A DNA stretch of 64,000 bases, taken from NCBI GenBank assembly GCA_963705505.1, contig CAVPJU010000006.1, positions 704,001-768,000 on the forward strand. Reading direction: 5' to 3'. The notes beneath the pieces are model-generated. The model was not told the DNA's origin. It was given only the letters and a program-made list of their open reading frames with translations, and ran no database searches. The position numbers and the translations under genes were made by a program. Shown in pieces: positions 3,025 to 13,967 of the stretch (positions are counted from its first letter, which is position 1; every line of letters starts with the position of its first letter). Origin of the DNA: an uncultured bacterium. GTDB lineage: Bacteria; Desulfobacterota_D; UBA1144; Nemesobacterales; UBA2774.

Positions 3025-5523
3025 TTAGTCGCATTTGGAGAACCCGCAGCTTCTGCATGTCACGCATCCCTGCTCGAATGCGAGTGCCCTGTCCCCGCAG
3101 TCGGGGCAGCGCTCGAGATTTAAATCAACTGCGCGCTTTGTAGTTTGCGAATCGTTTTCTGATGACTCTACGAAGTGTTTCTTTAAAACCGTGGCGATTG
3201 CATCCGGTATCGACATCACGAGCTTCCCTTCCGAGAAAACCGGAGACGATCCCCCTATCCCTTCGAGCTGCTCTACTACATCTTTTACGCTTATGCCCGA
3301 CCTCAGCGCAAGGGAAACGAGCCTGCCCGTCGCCTCGGCGTCCGCCATTGTGGAGTACCCCGATTTACCTATCTGTACGAAGACCTCAAACGGCCTTCCG
3401 TCATAGGTATTGATGGTAACGTACAGGTTTCCGTACCCGGTCTTTATGACTTCCGTAAACCCTTGCAGGAACTGAGGCCTTTTTATCGGCTTGATCTCCG
3501 GCATTTGGGTTGGACGAGGGGATGAGATGGGGTTGGGGTGATGGGTTTTTTTCATCCCCTCGTCCTGGGTCTGGGTCGGAAGCTTTATTTCGTCTTTTAT
3601 TTGCTGGGCCTTTATCTGGTCCTCTGTAACCAGTATGCCCTCTCTCGAGCCCTCCCTGTAAACGGTAATGCCTTTACAGCCGAGCTTCCACGCGAGGAAG
3701 TAGATCTTCTCCACTTCGTCCAGTGTTATGTCGGCCGGGAGGTTCACGGTGCTTGAAATACATGAATCGATATGCTTCTGAATCGCTGCCTGCATGCGCA
3801 CCCTCATTTCAGGCTCGATGTCGTGGGAGGTTACGAATGTCTTCGGAACATCTTTTTCATTTTGCAAATCGTATTTTTCTAAATATTCCTCTACTAGCGG
3901 GTGATAGACCTTAAATTCCCCTTTCGAGAGGGATTTGGAGCGCCTGAAGTAAGATAGTGCGAACATGGGCTCTACGCCGCTTGTCGTTCCGGCAAGCACG
4001 GAGCCGCTGCCGACGGGAGGGACGGTGAGTATGCACGCGTTCCTGAGCCCTTGTCTCTTTATTTTTTCCAGTACGCGGCCGTCGATCGTTTTCAGGAACG
4101 GAAGCGTCAAATGAGTGTCCCTGACGTAGGCGGGGAAAGTACCCTTCTCCGTTGCGAGATCGGAGCTCGCTTCGTACACGGTGTTTTTAATGTGTTCGAA
4201 CATCTTGTCGGCGAACTCAACGGCCTCGTTCGTATCGTATTTAATGTTCAGTTTTGCGAGCATGTCCCCGAATCCCGTAAAGCCGACCCCGATGCGCCTC
4301 GAGTGTGTAGACGCTTTTGTCTGATATACGAGGGGGTGCTTCTGCATGTTGTAGTCGAGCACGTTGTCCAGGAACCTTACAGAGTATTTGAACGCCTTTT
4401 CGAGGTTTTCCCAATCGATGGAAGCTTCTTCGGTGAATGCGTCCTTTACGAACGGCGACAGGTTAATGTTGCCGAGGCAGCAGTTTCCGTAGTCCTCAAG
4501 AGCCTGCTCGCTGCAGGGGTTGACGCCGTTTACTTCCATACCGCCGTACTCGGTGGGGGAATACCTCTTTACGGCATCCCAGAATATAACGCCCGGCTCT
4601 GCGGATGCCCATGCTGATTTTACGAGCTTTTCCCAGAGCGCTCTCGCTTGGACGGTCTTTGCGTACTTGACCTTCTCGTTTTCGAACTTGAGCTCGAAAT
4701 CCCTGTCTTCCTCGACTGCGCGCATGAACTCATCAGAGATCTTTACGGAGATGTTCGCGAATTTGACTCTTGACCTTTCGAGGTCGTTTTTAACGTCGAT
4801 AAATTCCTGTATATCCGGGTGGTTAACGTTGATTGTTATCATCAGGGCGCCCCGCCTCCCCGCCTGGCCGATCGTGCCGGTTGTTGTCGAAAGGAGGTCC
4901 ATGAAAGATACCGCACCCGTCGAGTATATAGCCGAATTGTTGACGGGAGCGCCTTTCGGCCTCAGGATGGATATGTCCGTCCCCACGCCGCCCCCGAACG
5001 AGTATGTCCTCGCCGCCTCCTTGCACCATTCGAATATGCCCTCTATGGAATCCTCTTTGATAGGCATGTAGTAGCAGTTAAGGAGTGTGGCCCTTCTGTT
5101 TTGCCCGGCTCCGAAAAGAATCCTGCCTCCGGGTATGAATTTGAAATCAGACAGCAGCCAGTAGAAATTGTCTTCCCATTCTTTCTTCTGCTCTTTCGTC
5201 TTCTCCGGAGAGGCTATTTCTCTTGCGACTCTATGCCACATGTCTTCAGGGGTCAGCTCCACGATCCTCCCGGTTTTGTCCCGGAGAGCGTACTTCTCAT
5301 AAAAAACGCGCGCGCGCAGCTCATCGCCGCCGAACGCCTTCAATGTCTTTTCCGGGAGATCCATGACCCCTTCCGTCTTCTGGACAAATTCTTCCTCTTC
5401 CTGGGTGTTTTGAATTGTCGATACCTCGATTTCCGGGATTTCCGGTTCGAGGCTTTTGTCCATCAATTTAGTCCCATGGCCGTTTCCGTTTGTCTGTGTG
5501 GGGCTGAGTTTATCAGAAGACAT
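3025..5523 (-). CDS. nrdJ: Adenosylcobalamin-dependent (class II) ribonucleotide reductase with C-terminal TSCPD-like domain
   Basis: FIPGGRIL, NPCSEQ, CCLGNINL, PPVGSGS, ISSTVNLP, KGITVYR; C-terminal CPDCG...CRSCGFSKC; no NrdB partner adjacent. Confidence 0.92.
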   Translation of the reverse strand: MSSDKLSPTQTNGNGHGTKLMDKSLEPEIPEIEVSTIQNTQEEEEFVQKTEGVMDLPEKTLKAFGGDELRARVFYEKYALRDKTGRIVELTPEDMWHRVAREIASPEKTKEQKKEWEDNFYWLLSDFKFIPGGRILFGAGQNRRATLLNCYYMPIKEDSIEGIFEWCKEAARTYSFGGGVGTDISILRPKGAPVNNSAIYSTGAVSFMDLLSTTTGTIGQAGRRGALMITINVNHPDIQEFIDVKNDLERSRVKFANISVKISDEFMRAVEEDRDFELKFENEKVKYAKTVQARALWEKLVKSAWASAEPGVIFWDAVKRYSPTEYGGMEVNGVNPCSEQALEDYGNCCLGNINLSPFVKDAFTEEASIDWENLEKAFKYSVRFLDNVLDYNMQKHPLVYQTKASTHSRRIGVGFTGFGDMLAKLNIKYDTNEAVEFADKMFEHIKNTVYEASSDLATEKGTFPAYVRDTHLTLPFLKTIDGRVLEKIKRQGLRNACILTVPPVGSGSVLAGTTSGVEPMFALSYFRRSKSLSKGEFKVYHPLVEEYLEKYDLQNEKDVPKTFVTSHDIEPEMRVRMQAAIQKHIDSCISSTVNLPADITLDEVEKIYFLAWKLGCKGITVYREGSREGILVTEDQIKAQQIKDEIKLPTQTQDEGMKKTHHPNPISSPRPTQMPEIKPIKRPQFLQGFTEVIKTGYGNLYVTINTYDGRPFEVFVQIGKSGYSTMADAEATGRLVSLALRSGISVKDVVEQLEGIGGSSPVFSEGKLVMSIPDAIATVLKKHFVESSENDSQTTKRAVDLNLERCPDCGDRALAFEQGCVTCRSCGFSKCD

Positions 5524-5936: not shown

Positions 5937-6561
5937 ATGGAACCGAATACCGAGGAGAGCAGGCAGGCATTCATACTGAATTTCTGGTTCGGCGATCTTA
6001 AGGAGGGAGATGTCCCTCCCGAAGAATTGAGCCGGATGTGGTGGGCAAAGGACGAAAAGACGGACGAATATATCAGGACTAATTTCGAATCCGACATTGC
6101 GGATGCAAAAGAAGGCAGGCTCCACGAATGGGAAAAGACTCCGCGCGGCACGCTCGCTCTCATAGTACTGCTCGACCAGTTCTCGAGGAATGTGTACAGG
6201 GACACGCCAGGGGCTTTTTCGCAGGATCGGCCAGGCATTGGAAATAGCCGTAAGCGGGATCGAAAAGGGGTTTGACAAGGAGCTCCATCCCATTGAAAGG
6301 GTGTTCTTCTATATGCCCTTCATGCACCGTGAGGATATCGATATGCAGAAGAGGTCGATAGCCCTGTTTGCGGCTTTAGAGAGGGGTTTCACTTCCCCTG
6401 CTGAACTTGCGGAAATGCTTTCTACCAACAGTGAATACGCCCGAAGGCACTATGCGATTATAGAGAGGTTCGGAAGGTACCCGCATAGGAATAAGATACT
6501 GGGTAGGGAATCGACGCCTGAGGAGGTCGAATTCTTGAAACAGCCGGGGTCATCTTTTTGA
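5937..6561 (+). pseudogene. DUF924-family protein split by a +1 frameshift near 6228-6232
   Basis: ILNFWF and LALIVLLDQFSRN in one frame, FFYMPFMH and IIERFGRYPHRN in the next; removing one base gives a 207-aa protein. Confidence 0.8.
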
Positions 6562-7058: not shown

Positions 7059-7466
7059 TTACTTTCCCTTGAGCTTAGCCTCAATCTTGCTGAGTACATA
7101 GCGCGACAGGCTCTCATCGCCGAATGTACCCACCCTTATCGATATGTCGGTCAGGTTATCTGTGACTCTTTTAAGCTGTATCTTTACGGTTTTATTGTCG
7201 GCTGTTTTCGATTCGAGCTCGGCCGAGACGTCGTCTTTTATCTTATTGACTACGAGGAACTGCAGATCATCGATTGCGGCGACAGTAGCCCCCCACGTTT
7301 TGTTAAGAGATGCTTCTTCAGTGGCTTTTAATTCGCCTTTTATATATGCTACCGTACCGGCTCCTGCTGCTGCCGCCCCGCCCACCGCTGCCGCCGCCAG
7401 GCACCCGGTCAATATGAACGGACATGCTGCCAGTAATAGTAAAATCAAGAGTTTCTGCTTTTTCAT
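7059..7466 (-). CDS. DUF3568-like lipoprotein
   Basis: Lipobox LTGC, AAAVGGAAAAGAG stretch, IRVGTFGDESLSR C-terminal motif. Confidence 0.75.
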   Translation of the reverse strand: MKKQKLLILLLLAACPFILTGCLAAAAVGGAAAAGAGTVAYIKGELKATEEASLNKTWGATVAAIDDLQFLVVNKIKDDVSAELESKTADNKTVKIQLKRVTDNLTDISIRVGTFGDESLSRYVLSKIEAKLKGK

Positions 7467-8037
7467 AACGTGCTTCCTCCGGTCTTCATGGTCTTAATAG
7501 ATTTGATTACGCGTAAGTCAATCAATTATATCCGGTGATAGTTGATTTTCGCAACTGGAATGTTCATTTGGCAAATATAACGCCGGCGGGCGTCGATCTT
7601 AATTATTACTGCGCCTCGGACAGGCGCATATACAAAGGGTCGAGCGGAGTCGGTCTCGGGAAAAAGAGCGTTTCCGAACAAAACCAGTCATATGACTGTC
7701 GTTATCGAGTTGTTGAATTATTACTCCCGCATTATTAGAATTGTAATATCACGGGGTAACAGCGGGGATTAAATTCGGATGGGAAATAATAAAGCAATGG
7801 TCTATTCAGGGGAACTGAGACATTCTGAAACTTTTTATGGGCATAATCGTATTTTTATAAAGAGGGACGGCATCGTTATCAGGGCGGATGACGGGGAGTG
7901 CATCGCTGCCCCGGTGGAAGGAATAATGAAGAATCCAAGGTCAAAATTGCGAAGCGCGCGAGAGCGGTCGGAAGGATGTTTCCGGACAGTGACTGTATAT
8001 CCGTTTTAAAAACTATGAATACACCTGACCTTCGAGC

Positions 8038-9891
8038 ATGGCATCGATAAACGAAGACTATCTAATACCGCTCGTTATAGGGGTGACCAGCCGGAAGGGT
8101 ACCGTTGCGGATGAAGAACGTCTGTCCGGACTCATAAGCGGAGAGATGGTCAGGCTCAGGAATACGTTTCCGAATTCTCCGTTCATTGTCATTTCTTCTC
8201 TTGCGGAGCGGGAGGAACGCCTCACCGCCAGGCTTGCGATCGAGCACCTGCGGGCGAGGCTCATAGCAATACTTCCGCAACCGCCCGAGCAATGTGTAAA
8301 TACGCTTCAGAACGATATTAACAGGGAGGACTTTTCACGAATTCTCGACCTGGCGGAGTCCTCACTCGATATCTCATCGCTGATGCAACTGAGGCTCGGT
8401 GTGAAAAGATACGATTTATTGGAAGACAGCGCGTTGAGGGAGAGCTTTACTGCCGCCTTTATTGCCGAGCATAGCGAGATTCTGTTCGCGATTTGTGCGG
8501 ATGAAACTGAGGGAGAGACAGACACGACCGCTCAGATTATTAACTGGATAAGGGAAGGCAGCATCACACGCGAATTCTCTTTGAGGGAGAGCAAAACAGG
8601 CCTGGATAATTTGGACAAAAGCATGATAATCTCAATAAATCCCATAACCTGCCTGACAGCGACTGAATCCGCCCCGCCCGAGGAAAATACAGAAGCGGCA
8701 AATGATGAATCCGGGGATCAAACGGGATTTATGCGTTCTATTCTCAGCAAGTTCTCCGGGAGTATCTTCGGGTTCGTCGAGAACGTGAGTGATTCTCTCG
8801 ATAACCTATATGATTATTATTTCAAGCATACGGCAGCCCAGGCGACGGATAAATATGAAAAATCGCCCTTCATAAATATAATAGAGAGGATCGACGGATT
8901 TAACCTCGATATCAGGAATTATTATGAGGGTCACGGTGAGCAAGAGCTCAATCAATCTAAAAAGTATTTACTCCAGAGTGAATCAGATAACGAGCTCATT
9001 TCGGATAATCCGACACTCCAAAGAATTATATCCCTTTACTCGGGCGCGGATGTTTTATCCCAGTACTATCAGAAAAAAACCTCGGGCCTCATAAACTGGA
9101 TCTACGCCCTCTTTTTAGTTGCCGTCTTGCTCTATGGACTGATCAATATGAGTTCTTATCTGGTCCTTTTCTACATAGGTTTAATACCCGCCATTGCCCT
9201 TCTGGTTAAAAAGAGTCTGAAAGACAGGGTGGAGGATCGGTTTCTCGACTACAGGGCCCTCGCGGAGGGGCTGCGCGTACAGGTCTTCTGGACGCTGTGC
9301 GGGATAAATGAGAACGTTTCATCCCACTACCTGAGCAAGTATGAGGGATTGCTGACCTGGATCAGGAAAGCGGTGAGGAGCATCGAGATTATGACGTTAA
9401 GAACGGACAGCGGAGATGGGCGGCGGGATAAATCCGCGCTGGTGGATATTACAAAAAGATTATGGATAGACTCGCAGCTCGATTATTTCAGGTCGAAGAG
9501 GAGACCGATTTTCATGAGGTCACGGCAGTTCGGGAATGTTGTATTTTTATCTTTTGTATTTACTCTTCTGACGGACGTCGTGTACGGCGCATACGTTCTG
9601 ATAGCCGGAGTCGACAACGGCAAAGCGATAAATGATTTTCAGATTCTCCTGGGCGTGATTGCCGCTGTCGGAGTTGCCGCCCAGGCATATAAAAATAAGA
9701 AGGCCTACGACGAGCTCGAGAGGAGGTACAGCCTGGCCCAGCAAATTTACGCCGCCGCGAAGAGGGAGCTCGAAATCGGCAAAGTGCCCGCGGAGAAGAT
9801 TCTCGTCGCGGTCGGCAGGGAAGCTTTGCTTGAGAACAGTGACTGGCTCTGGACTCACAGGAATGTTCCGATAGAGCTGCCCAAAGGATAG
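8038..9891 (+). CDS. SLOG-like (degenerate) plus tandem 2-TM SLATT-like membrane protein; paralog of the next gene
   Basis: LVIGVTSRK, SSLAERE and ILFAIC align with SLOG motifs; about four TM helices; RFLDYRALAEGLR, QLDYF and ENSDW shared with the neighbour. Confidence 0.65.
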   Translation: MASINEDYLIPLVIGVTSRKGTVADEERLSGLISGEMVRLRNTFPNSPFIVISSLAEREERLTARLAIEHLRARLIAILPQPPEQCVNTLQNDINREDFSRILDLAESSLDISSLMQLRLGVKRYDLLEDSALRESFTAAFIAEHSEILFAICADETEGETDTTAQIINWIREGSITREFSLRESKTGLDNLDKSMIISINPITCLTATESAPPEENTEAANDESGDQTGFMRSILSKFSGSIFGFVENVSDSLDNLYDYYFKHTAAQATDKYEKSPFINIIERIDGFNLDIRNYYEGHGEQELNQSKKYLLQSESDNELISDNPTLQRIISLYSGADVLSQYYQKKTSGLINWIYALFLVAVLLYGLINMSSYLVLFYIGLIPAIALLVKKSLKDRVEDRFLDYRALAEGLRVQVFWTLCGINENVSSHYLSKYEGLLTWIRKAVRSIEIMTLRTDSGDGRRDKSALVDITKRLWIDSQLDYFRSKRRPIFMRSRQFGNVVFLSFVFTLLTDVVYGAYVLIAGVDNGKAINDFQILLGVIAAVGVAAQAYKNKKAYDELERRYSLAQQIYAAAKRELEIGKVPAEKILVAVGREALLENSDWLWTHRNVPIELPKG

Positions 9892-9897
9892 AGTCTC

Positions 9898-11676
9898 ATG
9901 ACAAGCACAAATGAAATGAAATCCCCTCCTAAAGCCCGCCTCGCGGTCAGGGTCGGCGTTACGGGACACCGTCCCTCGGGACTTGATAAGGCCGATATGA
10001 AGGTACTCAGGACGCAGGCAGCGGAAGTTCTTAAACATATCAAGAGTGTTGCTAACGCAGTGAAGTTTTCCTTGTATTCCGACGGAGCGCCGCCTGTGCT
10101 GAGGATAGTGTCGCCACTTGCGGAGGGCGCCGATACGCTTGTTGCGGAAGAGGCCTTGAAAGAAGGGTATGAGCTCCAGTGCGCGCTCCCCTTCGACCGA
10201 TACGAGTATGAAAAGGATTTTTGGGACAGTGATTCCGTCAGAAGGTACCGGACTATGCTGGGGGAAGCTACCTCCATACTCGAGCTCGACGGTTCACGGG
10301 CGACTGAGGACCTCGAGAAGGAATCATATCAAACGGTCGGCCGGATGGTGCTCATGCAGAGCGACGTTCTTATTGCGATATGGGACGGCGAGGACGCAAA
10401 AGGGAAGGGGGGGACCGGGCAGATCGTGAATGAGTCGCACATACACGAAATCCCCGTCGTCTGGATAAATTCTAATGCCCCGCACGAGGTCAAGGTGCTG
10501 ATGGGGGAGGAATACGGGAGGCAAATTGAAGTGCGCCTCCCGGACCTCGAGATCCGCTTGAAGAGGGTCCTTCAGCCTCCCGCCGCGAAAAAGCCCGACC
10601 TCAGCAGGACCTACTTTTCCGAAAGGCAGCCATCGTGGACGTGGGGATTTATATTCGAGACATTCTGCGATATTTTCTCGGGCGAAAGGATAGAGACCAG
10701 AGGCGTCAAGGTCAGGAATTTCGTGGAAGAAACCGAAGAAGAATGGCGGAGAGTCTGGGATTCATGCCCGGATTTTCCGCAATCGGTCAAGGACCAGATC
10801 AACGATAAATTCCTCGGGCATTACAGCTGGGCGGACAAGCTCGCCAATTATTATTCAAACATTTACAGGAGCTCATTCGTGGCTAATTACCTGATGGCCG
10901 GTCTGGCGGTATTCTTCGCCCTCCTCACTCCGACCGTACGGAGTCTGGAGACACTCTGGATAATCTGCGAGCTCGCTCTGATCATACTCATAATACTGAT
11001 AACAGGCATCGGCAACCTGAAGCGCTGGCACGAGAGGTGGATAGACTACAGGCTCCTCTCGGAGCAGCTCAGGCAGCTCAGGTTTCTTACACCGCTCGGC
11101 CTCACGACGCCGGCATTCAGGGTGCCTGCCCACGATACTTACGGCGATCCCAGGAGCACGTGGGTGAACTGGCATTTCCGGGCGATTGTCCGGGAAGCGG
11201 GCATGGTCGGAGCGAAGATCGACGGGGAGTACCTGAAATCCTACAGGGATTTCTTATCGCAGCAGGAGATTACTGCGCAGATTAAATACCATGAATACAA
11301 CGCCCCCCGCTTTCATACGATCCATAACGTACTGCATATAATAGGCACCGGTCTATTCGTACTTACGCTCATTGCGAGTTTGGCTCATTTATATGTGCAC
11401 AACGACTGGCTGACTCTCTTTACGGCTGTCTTCCCCGCATTGGGCGCAGCGTTTTACGGTATCCGGACACAGGGGGAATTCGAGCAGATAGCAAAGAAAT
11501 CCGAAGCGATGGGCGCTCAGCTGGACAATCTCAGGGACGAGCTGCTTAAAACGGATTTCGTCCCGTCATACGGCGTGCTGGGCAACATTGCGGAAAGTAC
11601 CGCGGAGATCATGTCGTCGGAGACTCTCGACTGGAGAATAGTATTTCAATCCAAGCGGTTAGTGTTGCCTGGGTAG
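9898..11676 (+). CDS. SLOG domain plus tandem 2-TM SLATT-like (DUF4231-like) membrane protein
   Basis: VGVTGHR, SPLAEGAD and LIAIWDG..GKGGTGQIV SLOG motifs; four TM helices; RWIDYRLLSEQLR, QIKYH, ETLDW. Confidence 0.75.
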   Translation: MTSTNEMKSPPKARLAVRVGVTGHRPSGLDKADMKVLRTQAAEVLKHIKSVANAVKFSLYSDGAPPVLRIVSPLAEGADTLVAEEALKEGYELQCALPFDRYEYEKDFWDSDSVRRYRTMLGEATSILELDGSRATEDLEKESYQTVGRMVLMQSDVLIAIWDGEDAKGKGGTGQIVNESHIHEIPVVWINSNAPHEVKVLMGEEYGRQIEVRLPDLEIRLKRVLQPPAAKKPDLSRTYFSERQPSWTWGFIFETFCDIFSGERIETRGVKVRNFVEETEEEWRRVWDSCPDFPQSVKDQINDKFLGHYSWADKLANYYSNIYRSSFVANYLMAGLAVFFALLTPTVRSLETLWIICELALIILIILITGIGNLKRWHERWIDYRLLSEQLRQLRFLTPLGLTTPAFRVPAHDTYGDPRSTWVNWHFRAIVREAGMVGAKIDGEYLKSYRDFLSQQEITAQIKYHEYNAPRFHTIHNVLHIIGTGLFVLTLIASLAHLYVHNDWLTLFTAVFPALGAAFYGIRTQGEFEQIAKKSEAMGAQLDNLRDELLKTDFVPSYGVLGNIAESTAEIMSSETLDWRIVFQSKRLVLPG

Positions 11677-11730
11677 TCAATCACAGCTATAATCCTTCAG
11701 TATTTCCTCGGGAGGAGAGGGGGAAAACGC

Positions 11731-13074
11731 ATGGCTCACGATGTTTTTATCAGTCACTCTGCGAAAGATAAACCGATAGCCGACGCCGTATGCGCTACTC
11801 TTGAAAAAGGAGGCGTCAGATGCTGGATCGCCCCGAGGGATATCGTTCCCGGTACCCAGTGGGGGGAGGCGATCATTGATGCGATCAGCTCGTGCCGGGT
11901 TATGGTGCTCGTGTTTTCAGCCAACGCCAATGAATCCCAGCAAATTATACGGGAAGTCGAGCGCGCGGTCAGTAAGGGGGTACCGGTTATCCCTTTCAGG
12001 GTGGAGGACGTCGACCCCAATAAGTCCCTCGAATATTTTATAAGCGCTCCTCACTGGTTAGACGCTCTGACACCGCCTCTCGAGAAACACCTGGAACAGC
12101 TACTATCTACTATAAAGCTTCTGCTGACGAGAAAAGGAGCGCGCGCCGAGCCGACGCCCGATAAGGATACCCCCGGGTTAGAGACAATAAGGCCGCTCGA
12201 TACAAAGGGATATGTGCCGAAAAAGTCCTTTCTGGATAGTCTGGATGCAAAGAAAGTCGGGGGCGGCATAGTCGCTCTAATTATCATAGTCGCAGCCGTG
12301 TATTTCCTTTCCGGGGGCGGCAAGGATAATAATACAAATAACGATTCAAATAAGAATTCAAATAATAATAGCTCTCAAAATGTAGTACCGCCTGCACCTA
12401 CCAACTATAATCCTCCCGTTTATAAGACGTCTCCTCCGGGACCCCACGACAACGAGGGGACATGGGGAGCGATCTCCATCGCCCCTAGCGGCGGATGGGG
12501 TTTTTCTACTAATATGACCTCGAAACAGGCGGCCGAGCAGGACGCTATCGAAAGATGCAGTCAGTTCAACACGGGTTGCGAGGTGAGGGTCGCATTCAAC
12601 TCCTGCGCTGTCTATGCAACAGCGCCAGACGGGTCATACGGCTGGGCAACCAATACGACCGTTGACCTGGCGAGGAATAACGCGGTCACTGAATGTCATA
12701 AATACACGAGTGAAACATGCAGCTCGTTCATTGAGTTATGCTCGGACGGAAGCGTGAAGACAGTGAACGTATGGGCGGCCATAGCCACAGCCGATAACGG
12801 GCAATACGGAGTTTCATGGAACTATCCTACGCGTAGTCAGGCGGAGAAAGCGTCTATTGATGAGTGCACAAAATACGGGCCCAACTGTCAGATGAGGATT
12901 TCCTTCACCGACTGCGGCGCGGTAGCGCGGAGTGAGGACGGTGCTCTCGGTTGGGGGTACTATTCCGATATGAATGAAGCGGTAAAGGCGGCAATTGAGG
13001 AGTGTGACGGCCGAAGTGAGAAAAAATGCAGCATCCTTACTCAGCTGTGCGCCGACGGAAGCCAGAAGAAATAA
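11731..13074 (+). CDS. TIR domain, single TM, tandem DUF4189-like Cys-rich repeat protein
   Basis: DVFISHS, CWIAPRDI.PG and SQQIIREVERA (E75); KK then TM at aa 176-193; Asn/Pro linker; two approximately 103-aa repeats with 6 Cys each. Confidence 0.85.
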   Translation: MAHDVFISHSAKDKPIADAVCATLEKGGVRCWIAPRDIVPGTQWGEAIIDAISSCRVMVLVFSANANESQQIIREVERAVSKGVPVIPFRVEDVDPNKSLEYFISAPHWLDALTPPLEKHLEQLLSTIKLLLTRKGARAEPTPDKDTPGLETIRPLDTKGYVPKKSFLDSLDAKKVGGGIVALIIIVAAVYFLSGGGKDNNTNNDSNKNSNNNSSQNVVPPAPTNYNPPVYKTSPPGPHDNEGTWGAISIAPSGGWGFSTNMTSKQAAEQDAIERCSQFNTGCEVRVAFNSCAVYATAPDGSYGWATNTTVDLARNNAVTECHKYTSETCSSFIELCSDGSVKTVNVWAAIATADNGQYGVSWNYPTRSQAEKASIDECTKYGPNCQMRISFTDCGAVARSEDGALGWGYYSDMNEAVKAAIEECDGRSEKKCSILTQLCADGSQKK

Positions 13075-13094
13075 CACCCAGCCGGGAAAACTTC

Positions 13095-13967
13095 TCAATT
13101 GCCCGATTCTTTAAAGGACTCTTCTTCCATGACGACTTCGGGTGAGCTGCGGCCGTTCTCAAACCCCTCGTACCTGACCCATCTGTGCGGGGGCGCAACT
13201 CTAAACCAGAAATATGTCTTCGGAAAAAAGACTTTAAATATATTGAGCACGCCTAATTTGGGCACGAGCTCAACTTTGTAGCACTCTATTTCGCCGTCAG
13301 GCGTATTGATTTTCTCGATTCCCCTCTGTTTGAGCTCGATATTGTAAAGATCGGGCTCGTTTGTAAGGAATTGAGCTTTGACAGTATCATCCGTACCGAA
13401 CGGGAGCGAGCGGAGGGCCAGAACGATCCCCTCAACGAACAAAACGTTCCGGTCTGTCTCGTATGTCTTGTTCGCCGACCTGCCGCTTTCAAAATCCTGT
13501 CTTACGAATGACACTGTTCCGGTAGAGTCATCTACGGTTTTCCTTTCCGTCATAACTACTTTGCCCCGCATATCTTTAACCTCGGTTGAGGATTCAACTG
13601 GTGTGAATGCGGATCCGGCCTTCCACACCGATACGGTCTCCCATCTCATATCCCTCGTAAATGGGTTAGTAATTCCCTGCCCTTTCAGTGTGAGTCTTAC
13701 CGTGGTTTCTCCGTTGTCTGTGAATTTTTCGGTCGTCCAGTCCGCTTTCCATCTGGTCCCGCCCCCCTTGTAAGTGGTGACCATGGAGCCTTCCTCTCTT
13801 TTGCCAATAGGAGGTGTGCTAATCGGGTGTGCCGGCAGCGGGGTTACCAGGACTGTTAAAAGAAAGAAGGGAAATAATAGAAATGCATTTTTATGGGATA
13901 TACCGTAATTAGTCCTGCACCAGCTTCCGGCAAGTGAAGCTATTCTCCAAAATGTTTGCTTATACAT
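13095..13967 (-). CDS. Exported beta-rich protein, DUF3108-like (start uncertain)
   Basis: Hydrophobic signal-like segment; EKINTPDGEIECYKVEL and YFWF...WVRYE C-terminal pattern. Confidence 0.55.
   Translation of the reverse strand: MYKQTFWRIASLAGSWCRTNYGISHKNAFLLFPFFLLTVLVTPLPAHPISTPPIGKREEGSMVTTYKGGGTRWKADWTTEKFTDNGETTVRLTLKGQGITNPFTRDMRWETVSVWKAGSAFTPVESSTEVKDMRGKVVMTERKTVDDSTGTVSFVRQDFESGRSANKTYETDRNVLFVEGIVLALRSLPFGTDDTVKAQFLTNEPDLYNIELKQRGIEKINTPDGEIECYKVELVPKLGVLNIFKVFFPKTYFWFRVAPPHRWVRYEGFENGRSSPEVVMEEESFKESGN

Follow-up and report, generated by a model that had tools for sequence, protein, structure and literature searches.

Why should a bacterium keep, directly upstream of a membrane protein whose SLOG domain carries its ligand motifs intact, a second protein of the same build whose SLOG domain has lost them? 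The question is raised by a stretch of 64,000 nucleotides (nt) from an uncultured bacterium of the Desulfobacterota_D lineage UBA2774 (contig CAVPJU010000006.1, positions 704,001–768,000; hereafter the window, with positions counted from its first letter), in which gene 1 encodes the motif-less protein, gene 2 the intact one and gene 3, immediately downstream, a protein with a TIR domain. We give about even weight to the answer that the three genes constitute one Thoeris-like module in which gene 1 is a non-binding co-subunit of gene 2. The features on which the argument draws are the following:

8038–9891, forward strand: gene 1, an open reading frame (ORF) of 617 amino acids (aa), a SLOG-degenerate membrane protein ("pseudo-sensor" paralogue).
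8065–8661, forward strand: SLOG-fold domain of gene 1, aa 10–208, with four ligand motifs gone (fold match, motif entropy, ratio of nonsynonymous to synonymous substitution rates, dN/dS).
8638–8862, forward strand: insert of gene 1, aa 201–275, an acidic low-confidence linker and a predicted amphipathic helix (alignment, predicted local distance difference test score, pLDDT, and composition).
9028–9888, forward strand: tandem SLATT region of gene 1, aa 331–617, four hydrophobic helices (hydropathy, sub-threshold NCBIfam SLATT_1 and SLATT_3 matches, invariant residues).
9898–11676, forward strand: gene 2, a SLOG-(SLATT)2 membrane protein of 592 aa with intact ligand motifs, the presumed active sensor-effector (ORF, NCBIfam, Pfam, AlphaFold2).
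9940–10575, forward strand: SLOG domain of gene 2, aa 15–226, YpsA-like, with GHR, AEGAD, WDG and GGT (fold match, invariant residues).
10798–11673, forward strand: tandem SLATT region of gene 2, aa 301–592 (Pfam, NCBIfam, AlphaFold2, hydropathy).
11731–13074, forward strand: gene 3, 447 aa, a TIR domain, a single transmembrane (TM) helix and two DUF4189 domains (Pfam, hydropathy).

The ligand motifs of gene 2, VGVTGHR (aa 19–25), SPLAEGAD (aa 72–79), IAIWDG (aa 159–164) and GKGGTGQIV (aa 169–177), share columns in both MAFFT and profile-profile alignments with IGVTSRK (aa 14–20), SSLAEREE (aa 53–60), FAICAD (aa 150–155) and ETDTTAQII (aa 160–168) of gene 1. Functional ligand-contact motifs are thus absent from gene 1, which has SRK, EREE, CAD and DTT in the GHR, AEGAD, WDG and GGT columns. 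In gene 2 they have the form expected of a ligand-binding SLOG, with G20, G23, H24, R25, A75, G77, D79, G171 and G172 invariant in 61 sequences. With E ≤ 0.001 as the limit, a homology search gave 976 relatives for gene 2 and 231 for gene 1, the best 120 of each being listed. Among the matches listed, the orthologues of gene 1 form about 39 clusters at 41–71% identity, all of them motif-less where an N-terminus is present: the His of TGHR is kept in 0 of 36 such proteins, and the first motif reads GVTSRK, GVSGRK, GVAAQN, GVLAED and others across the clade. A second group of listed relatives, G1d, at 22–31% identity, keeps VIGVTGHR, LAEGAD, ALWDG and GGTAQ.

The loss is confined to the pocket. 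Positions that hardly vary in 72 motif-bearing relatives (in gene 1 numbering, H19 100%, G58 100%, D60 97%, W153 99%, D154 93%, G163 94% and T164 100%) have an entropy of 1.7–3.0 bits in 30 gene 1 orthologues, and the mean entropy of the SLATT region is 0.76 bits in these orthologues versus 2.21 bits in the 72 relatives. Since the pocket columns vary while the gene 1 orthologues are otherwise far less diverged, the loss of the motifs is pocket-specific and not a matter of chance.

The SLOG fold itself remains recognizable. No SLOG-type Pfam or NCBIfam model matched gene 1 or gene 2 at E ≤ 0.1, and the SLOG assignment of both therefore rests on the fold. The predicted model of gene 1 superimposes on YpsA (2nx2) with a Z-score of 15.6 and a root-mean-square deviation (rmsd) of 3.1 over 163 aligned residues, and on DprA and LOG with Z-scores of 11.2 and 9.3. 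Foldseek assigns the gene 1 and gene 2 models alike to the SLOG fold with a probability of 1.0. The AlphaFold2 model of gene 1 has a pLDDT of 81.4 and a predicted template-modelling score (pTM) of 0.82, values obtained from an alignment that included motif-bearing relatives and that may flatter the intactness of the fold.

Between the SLOG fold and the membrane region, gene 1 carries about 45 extra residues around aa 213–262 relative to its motif-bearing relatives. The insert is acidic (13 D+E vs 5 K+R in the 75 residues of aa 201–275), with a predicted helix at 231–262 flanked by stretches with pLDDT below 50 at 217–230 and 263–268, and it is the fastest-evolving part of gene 1 (mean amino acid identity 0.32, mean dN 0.795). 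The SLATT region is the best conserved part. The SLATT assignment of gene 1 draws on sub-threshold NCBIfam matches (17.2 bits), on its end-to-end alignment to the gene 2 profile and on its hydrophobic helices. R406, E410, R413, W418, W441, W476, G593, E599 and W603 are invariant in 102 sequences. The membrane regions of gene 1 and gene 2 have in common AD.L...Y, DYR.L.E.LR, Q..Y, E..DW and a C-terminal LP(K)G. In both proteins, the SLOG domain is followed by long helices whose hydrophobic segments are arranged as two 2TM SLATT-type units, giving four membrane helices. The original prediction, made from the letters of the window, had placed the quoted motifs of the two genes opposite each other and had described lost ligand loops, shared membrane-region motifs and an additional acidic and amphipathic insert in gene 1; each of these observations is borne out by the alignments, entropies and models above.

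Gene 2 is, by the same measures, the presumed active sensor-effector. Its predicted SLOG model matches YpsA with a Z-score of 16.1 and an rmsd of 2.5 over 157 aligned residues, followed by DprA (12.9), ShosA (11.1), a MoCo-carrier protein (10.5), LOG (9.9), TRPM2 (7.0–7.4) and the BcThsA SLOG in complex with 3′cADPR (cADPR, cyclic ADP-ribose; 7uxs, 7.3). A phmmer search of gene 2 against the sequences of the PDB gave 0 matches. The membrane region is recognized by NCBIfam SLATT_1 (1.7e-16, 60.3 bits with a cut-off of 41) and by Pfam DUF4231 (27.7 bits, cut-off 24.7), and SLATT_4 scores below its cut-off of 55 (7.8e-8, 32.3 bits). The AlphaFold2 model of gene 2 has a pLDDT of 89.4 and a pTM of 0.89.

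The two genes had been put forward as an intact and a degenerate member of a paralog pair, and this description stands in one sense and falls in another. Profiles built from 30 gene 1 orthologues (A2) and 61 gene 2 homologues (A1) align end to end in hhalign (probability 99, E 4.6e-18, 537 columns, 19% identity), which establishes homology over the full length. BLASTP, however, aligns only aa 261–424 of gene 1 with aa 239–403 of gene 2 (E 1e-4), a weak and partial match that makes the pair much more distant than the term suggests. A tree of 48 proteins (578 columns, built by the quick search of IQ-TREE), with the gene 2 family as the outgroup, recovers gene 1 and its orthologues as a monophyletic clade (support 100), nested in G1d and sister to P0160-62 (support 98). 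Gene 1, being nested in G1d, belongs to this second subfamily and is not a recent duplicate of gene 2. The same tree indicates that the pocket was lost once, on the stem of the clade, and that the loss is ancient; on this tree, the loss of the motifs coincides with the pairing to gene 2.

To describe the genomic setting of the pair we used two scans. A scan with the A3 profile, taking one genome per species, gave 80 loci, of which 6 are of the gene 1 type (all from metagenome-assembled genomes, MAGs, of Dadabacteria or Thermodesulfobacteriota) and 74 of the G1d type; a metagenome scan with A5, which represents distant relatives of gene 2, gave another 80. Gene 1 is followed directly by gene 2 in 6/6 gene-1-type loci and in the window, with a gap of 6 nt in five of them and of 23–27 nt in two. 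The G1d gene stands alone in its locus in all 74 cases except L039, which has two copies, and L012 and L015, in which the gene is split; weak SLATT-only neighbours adjoin the G1d genes of L058 and L065. Similarly, 0/80 loci of the gene 2 subfamily in the metagenome scan have a gene-1-type neighbour. One of these 80, L124, has two intact genes and three (L126, L143 and L150) have two pieces.

Across 41 genomes (40 relatives and the genome of the window), the same 13 match both profiles: 8/9 of genus g1, 3/3 of genus g6, the window's own and one of another family, in which the match is a lone protein of a different type. Gene 1 thus co-occurs with gene 2 in 11/11 relatives that carry gene 1, a count to be read with the relatedness of these genomes in mind, as they are not independent. 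Neither gene was found in the 12 genomes from five other genera of the family or in genomes of other families, save the one with the lone protein, and the genome of the window has no further copies of either. In one relative of the same genus, gene 1 is present as two adjacent pieces (G009:C30:312148-313999; 144 aa matching profile positions 1–75 and 566 aa matching 71–617), which may be due to a frameshift or to an assembly error.

The pair occupies a fixed chromosomal site. The order RNR, DUF924, SnoaL-like, DUF3568, gene 1, gene 2, TIR-DUF4189, DUF3108 is retained across two genera. Within the window, the DUF924 gene (5937–6561) is split by a frameshift into an ORF at 5937–6275 (profile positions 1–80) and another in a different frame at 6190–6561 (positions 75–180), and is either a broken gene or an assembly error; its orthologue in L001 is a single frame of 207 aa covering profile positions 1–180. 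Genes 1, 2 and 3 are co-directional. An AAAGGA site shortly precedes the stop codon of gene 1, 9–14 nt upstream of the gene 2 ATG, and its position is compatible with translational coupling of the two genes. Gene 3 starts 54 nt past the end of gene 2, and its ATG is preceded by a strong Shine-Dalgarno-like run, GGGAGGAG. A scan of 7400–13300 returned 10 promoter-like sites versus 5.5 expected and 7 terminator-like sites versus 5.5, numbers that are uninformative, and it detected no terminator-like site between the gene ends and starts of the three genes except weak internal ones. A search for sequencing runs listed 20 DNA metagenome runs and none of RNA.

The ORF of gene 1 is full length in the window and in 5/6 of the fetched loci whose contig covers it. 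We calculated dN/dS by the NG86 method from codon alignments of the window and L001–L006, keeping pairs with dS below 1.5; per region, 3–8 of the 15 pairs gave no usable dS and were dropped. The values, which are rough as dS lies between 0.4 and 1.5, are:

Gene 1 SLOG: dN/dS 0.21–0.30 (5 pairs).
Gene 1 SLATT: dN/dS 0.05–0.10 (4 pairs).
Gene 2 SLOG: dN/dS 0.16–0.31 (10 pairs).
Gene 2 SLATT: dN/dS 0.08–0.17 (10 pairs).
Gene 3 TIR domain: dN/dS 0.007–0.03 (5 pairs).

Gene 1 is thus under purifying selection and clearly not under neutral drift, the range for its SLOG domain being close to that of the gene 2 SLOG. This agrees with the original prediction, which had argued from the full-length ORF against simple decay and had named orthologues retaining TGHR or relaxed selection among the findings that would undo it; the orthologues display neither.

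The combination of a live and a dead SLOG is not peculiar to this clade. A motif census by hmmalign took in, from all loci, every ORF that reached 200 aa in length and 200 bits in score, and inspected seven key residues: 134 have 7/7 and 14 have 6/7. Full-length ORFs with three or fewer are confined to the gene 1 clade, L039b, L070 and L126b, other low scorers being contig-end or split fragments. In L039, from a Thermoanaerobaculia MAG, a TIR_2 gene and an intact G1d gene lie on one strand, and divergent to them is a G1d-type gene of 475 aa whose SLOG is shortened and motif-less and whose SLATT motifs are intact. Its product aligns with A4 in hhalign (probability 100, E 7.7e-69) and shares 38% identity with its neighbour over the C-terminal half. 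When 1.84 billion cluster representatives were searched, one full-length relative (P0259, 54% identical) proved to be motif-less as well, and the next match, P0260, is intact.

The second case is a metagenome contig, L126 (L126:5959-10719), which encodes in order a SLOG-only protein of 228 aa with all motifs, a gene-2-type protein of 578 aa whose SLATT motifs are intact and whose SLOG lacks its motifs, and a DUF4062-TIR_2-SPOR protein of 782 aa. The first two genes overlap by 8 nt, and stop and start codons overlap in this operon. The two SLOG domains are 31% identical (E 3e-15). Among the orthologues of the degenerate protein, motif decay is graded from P0241 to P0250, and P0251–P0257 are intact. 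Since the sole intact sensor and the sole membrane module of L126 are separate proteins, the signal must pass between them by protein contact if the system works, and this contact would plausibly be one of SLOG to pseudo-SLOG. The TIR protein of L126, like the TIR-DUF4189 protein of the window, bears a cell-wall-type outer domain. The intact-plus-degenerate pairs of L039 and L126 arose independently. The remaining case, L070:6191-8017 from a Planctomycetaceae MAG, is a lone SLOG-SLATT protein of 608 aa whose partly degenerate SLOG retains WDG but has neither the His nor AEGAD. Neither another copy nor a TIR match was found within about 6–7 kb of it, and thus a partner is not always present within 7 kb.

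The original prediction had described the two-gene content of the locus correctly and had left the adjoining TIR gene unmentioned. Gene 3 contains a Pfam TIR_2 domain (aa 5–124, 7.7e-23) and two stretches of DUF4189 (3.1e-40). A TM helix at about aa 176–197 and an Asn-rich linker separate the TIR domain from the two Cys-rich DUF4189 domains, and the former is predicted to be cytoplasmic and the latter to lie outside the cytoplasm. The catalytic Glu is presumably located in the conserved REVE stretch at aa 74–77, where we placed the candidate by eye. No other TIR_2 gene is present in the 2.88-Mb genome. An orthologue of gene 3 follows gene 2 in 4/4 loci with a long enough contig; the contig of L002 stops within the TIR gene and that of L006 within gene 2. 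Among the orthologues, the TIR domain (11743–12102) has a mean amino acid identity of 94%, compared to 48% for the linker and 69% for DUF4189.

The TIR association extends to both subfamilies. A local hidden Markov model (HMM) built from eight TIR domains (E < 1e-3) found TIR matches near at least 63 of the 160 related loci (4/6 gene-1-type, 34/74 G1d and 25/80 gene-2-type), many of them within 0–1.3 kb. This number is a lower bound, as many loci are on short contigs and the local HMM missed the TIR protein of L126. All 32 of the matches sent to Pfam were TIR_2 above the cut-off. An all-family Pfam scan, which covered those 87 of the 257 immediate neighbours that belong to L001–L049 (the neighbours in L050–L160 were surveyed for TIR domains by the local HMM), added ten TIR_2 neighbours and one TIR-STING. 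The architectures of the TIR partners comprise TIR-TPR (about 700 aa), SIR2_2-TIR, TIR-NB-ARC, TIR-WD40, TIR-FHA, TIR-REC, TIR-FGE-sulfatase and TIR-DUF4189, and this variety matches a signal generator that can exchange its sensors and is coupled to a receptor-effector that stays constant. In the window, the TIR gene lies in the same putative operon as a presumed ligand-sensing effector, as in Thoeris. The downstream TIR gene, which by analogy likely supplies the ligand, places the locus among Thoeris-like TIR/SLOG/SLATT systems.

The survey also turned up neighbourhoods worth recording in their own right. A TIR_2/ThsB_TIR-TPR protein of about 690–780 aa lies 0.1–1.3 kb upstream of members of both subfamilies (L059, L066, L068, L071, L080, L086, L088, L106, L123, L159), and SIR2_2-TIR_2 fusions adjoin SLOG-SLATT genes in three loci (L009:3430-4854, L038:8167-9612, L081:1987-3396). 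In a Pelotomaculum MAG, the genes on either side of a motif-bearing SLOG-SLATT gene encode a TIR-STING fusion (CAP12-PCTIR_TIR with prok_STING) and a transposase of the IS200 type (L021:1458-2522 and 4606-5079). RyR-domain proteins, some with TrkA_N, are found directly beside motif-bearing SLOG-SLATT genes (L016:4397-6977, L022:8905-9219, L041:2546-4648), in L016 and L022 together with TIR genes. At L011:4765-6657 and L038:2176-5490, the SLOG-SLATT genes have as neighbours proteins that combine a class III adenylate/guanylate cyclase domain with TPR or AAA_16.

Combining these observations, we propose the following model. The TIR domain of gene 3 would be triggered via the outward-facing DUF4189 domains and would convert nicotinamide adenine dinucleotide (NAD+) to an ADP-ribose-derived nucleotide. 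This nucleotide would be bound by the YpsA-like SLOG of gene 2, and its binding would cause the SLATT helices of gene 2 to gate the inner membrane or make it permeable. Gene 1 would have been recruited from the second SLOG-SLATT subfamily, losing the pocket and keeping the SLOG fold and SLATT region; its pseudo-SLOG would pair with the SLOG of gene 2, its SLATT helices would join the membrane assembly, and it would set the stoichiometry or the threshold of activation. The assignment of sensing to gene 2 and of signal-making to gene 3 draws on established knowledge of Thoeris. The heteromeric complex of gene 1 and gene 2 is what we infer, and the best argument for gene 1 as a co-subunit is the arrangement in L126. 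Complex predictions for the C-terminal halves (gene 2 aa 232–592 with A1 and gene 1 aa 277–617 with A2), run without controls, gave 0.24 and 0.29 with the mark at 0.32, and count neither for nor against the complex.

Several points weigh against this model. Both subfamilies are normally single-gene, and each protein could therefore act alone here. At about 19% identity, a conserved homotypic interface is less likely than it would be between recent duplicates. The roughness of the dN/dS values and the composition of the alignment behind the gene 1 model, both given above, count on the same side. So do the fixed site of the genes between housekeeping genes (RNR, DUF3568, DUF3108) in two genera with no obvious defence island, the unusually strong conservation of the TIR domain, compatible with either a physiological or a defensive role, and the output of PADLOC, which recognises no system at the locus, has no match for gene 1 and has only weak ones for gene 2 (2TM/4TM effector, E 0.002–0.015) and gene 3 (ThsB-like, best 6.9e-4).

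Heteromerisation of the opposite sign would make gene 1 an inhibitory safety subunit, antitoxin-like or dominant-negative, which caps or dilutes assemblies of gene 2 and is overcome by a high signal only. Gene 1 precedes gene 2, with probable translational coupling between them, and protective partners usually come first; gene 1 has kept the assembly-relevant SLATT region (dN/dS 0.05–0.10) and lost the pocket alone, and the pairing of intact with degenerate proteins recurs. Hundreds of single-gene relatives do without such a brake, however, and in L126 the degenerate protein is the sole membrane module and must be the effector there and not a brake. The present data fit inhibition as well as co-activation. 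We regard this sub-case as a minority possibility.

We hold it to be similarly doubtful that gene 1 and gene 2 merely share an operon and act independently, with gene 1 gated by its insert, by the state of the membrane or by contact with the TIR protein. The two proteins come from different subfamilies, each normally autonomous, and the gene 1 clade has conserved features of its own (NTFPxSPF and the insert helix). Furthermore, two live receptors can coexist, as L124:3310-7106 contains two convergent gene-2-type SLOG-SLATT genes, both motif-intact. Against independence, a protein of the gene 1 clade was never found apart from gene 2 (7/7 loci, 11/11 relatives), the loss of the motifs coincides on the tree with the pairing, and the insert, being the fastest-evolving part, is unlike a conserved gate.

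A subunit of altered specificity was among the roles suggested by the original prediction, and its SLOG domain would bind a different ligand through a remodelled pocket. The retained fold and the SLOG dN/dS of 0.21–0.30 would suit such a role, but the residues at the former pocket differ widely between members of the clade (1.7–3.0 bits) with no new ones fixed, which makes it improbable. The lost motifs and the lack of a family match above cut-off might suggest a pseudogene in decay or an error of annotation. We reject this reading as scarcely credible in view of the ORF intact in the window and 5/6 covering loci, the roughly 39 clusters of related proteins, with identities as low as 41%, the many invariant residues and dN/dS well below 1.

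Whether gene 1 assists or restrains gene 2, the module may serve either to defend against phage by abortive infection or to respond physiologically to a cue from the envelope. For defence, the TIR partners of the family include STAND, NB-ARC and SIR2 types, and one locus lies beside TIR-STING and an IS200 transposase. For physiology, in addition to the stable site and the conserved TIR domain, the TIR protein is membrane-anchored with predicted outward-facing domains, and PADLOC finds no known system at the locus.

How does the module compare with known systems? TIR enzymes whose nucleotide products are read by SLOG, Macro or SLATT effectors form a major arm of bacterial immunity, and TIR signalling in plants and animals has its root there. 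Burroughs and colleagues reportedly predicted by comparative genomics, in 2015, SLOG-SLATT fusions and TIR-SLOG and TIR-SLATT neighbourhoods. SLATT proteins have been predicted to be permeability effectors regulated by ADP-ribose derivatives (PMC9503650), and YpsA-like SLOGs to be sensors of cADPR (PMC9503650, PMC7159879). According to the main text of a recent preprint, which reports that the ThsA SLOG binds 3′cADPR, type VII Thoeris, a validated system, consists of a TIR protein (ThsB) and a SLATT effector (ThsH), with cADPR as the signal and an effector predicted to oligomerise (bioRxiv 10.64898/2025.12.03.692087). As in the window, a TIR gene adjoins a SLATT membrane effector there and the logic is one of signal followed by oligomerisation. 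Compared by description, however, ThsH has its ligand pockets between SLATT protomers and no SLOG is mentioned for it, whereas here (i) a separate YpsA-like SLOG precedes two SLATT units, (ii) two such genes are present, one of them sensor-dead, and (iii) the TIR protein is membrane-anchored with DUF4189 domains. No NCBIfam or PADLOC model of ThsH matches the genes of the locus.

With ThsA (SIR2-SLOG) of type I Thoeris, the module would share a SLOG as the receptor of the TIR product (Z 7.3 between the BcThsA SLOG and the gene 2 model), but the output is SIR2 there and SLATT helices here, and the SLOG of gene 2 is nearer to YpsA (Z 16.1). With TRPM2 and other TRPM channels it shares a SLOG-fold domain, the N-terminal MHR1/2, fused to a membrane conduit (Z 7.0–7.4 over the SLOG part); the membrane domains are unrelated, and the likeness is an analogy of design only. 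Members of the TRPM family differ in whether the SLOG site binds ligand, and TRPM2 is gated by ADP-ribose (ADPR). The combination of TIR with SLOG-SLATT is of a known kind. In the literature searched, which for type VII Thoeris means the main text of the preprint, we found no account in which a SLOG-SLATT protein with a working sensor is paired with a sensor-dead paralogue.

A broader proposal, which we advance tentatively and consider rather unlikely in its entirety, is that this pairing is a recurrent design of TIR/SLOG/SLATT systems with at least three independent origins (the clade of the window, L039 and L126), in which a pseudo-SLOG serves as the docking partner of a ligand-binding SLOG and one ligand-bound sensor controls a hetero-oligomeric conduit. 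In the lineage of the window, the module would then be no phage defence but a second-messenger pathway passed on by vertical descent. Its TIR enzyme would be driven by DUF4189 domains that act as a sensor facing outwards, and its membrane channel would be gated by a nucleotide made from NAD, in a bacterial parallel to TRPM2 and its gating by ADPR. To our knowledge, the described TIR systems all use one effector type per signal. If true, a conserved, selected and ligand-blind copy of the receptor that is always found with a live one and has evolved repeatedly would add to them the principle of the pseudo-receptor subunit, as in many eukaryotic heteromeric channels and pseudoenzyme pairs. L126, with its soluble live SLOG and its membrane effector bearing a dead one, offers a clean experimental handle on the transfer of the SLOG signal, and the membrane-anchored, outward-facing TIR protein at a stable chromosomal site raises the question of whether TIR chemistry may serve ordinary envelope signalling.

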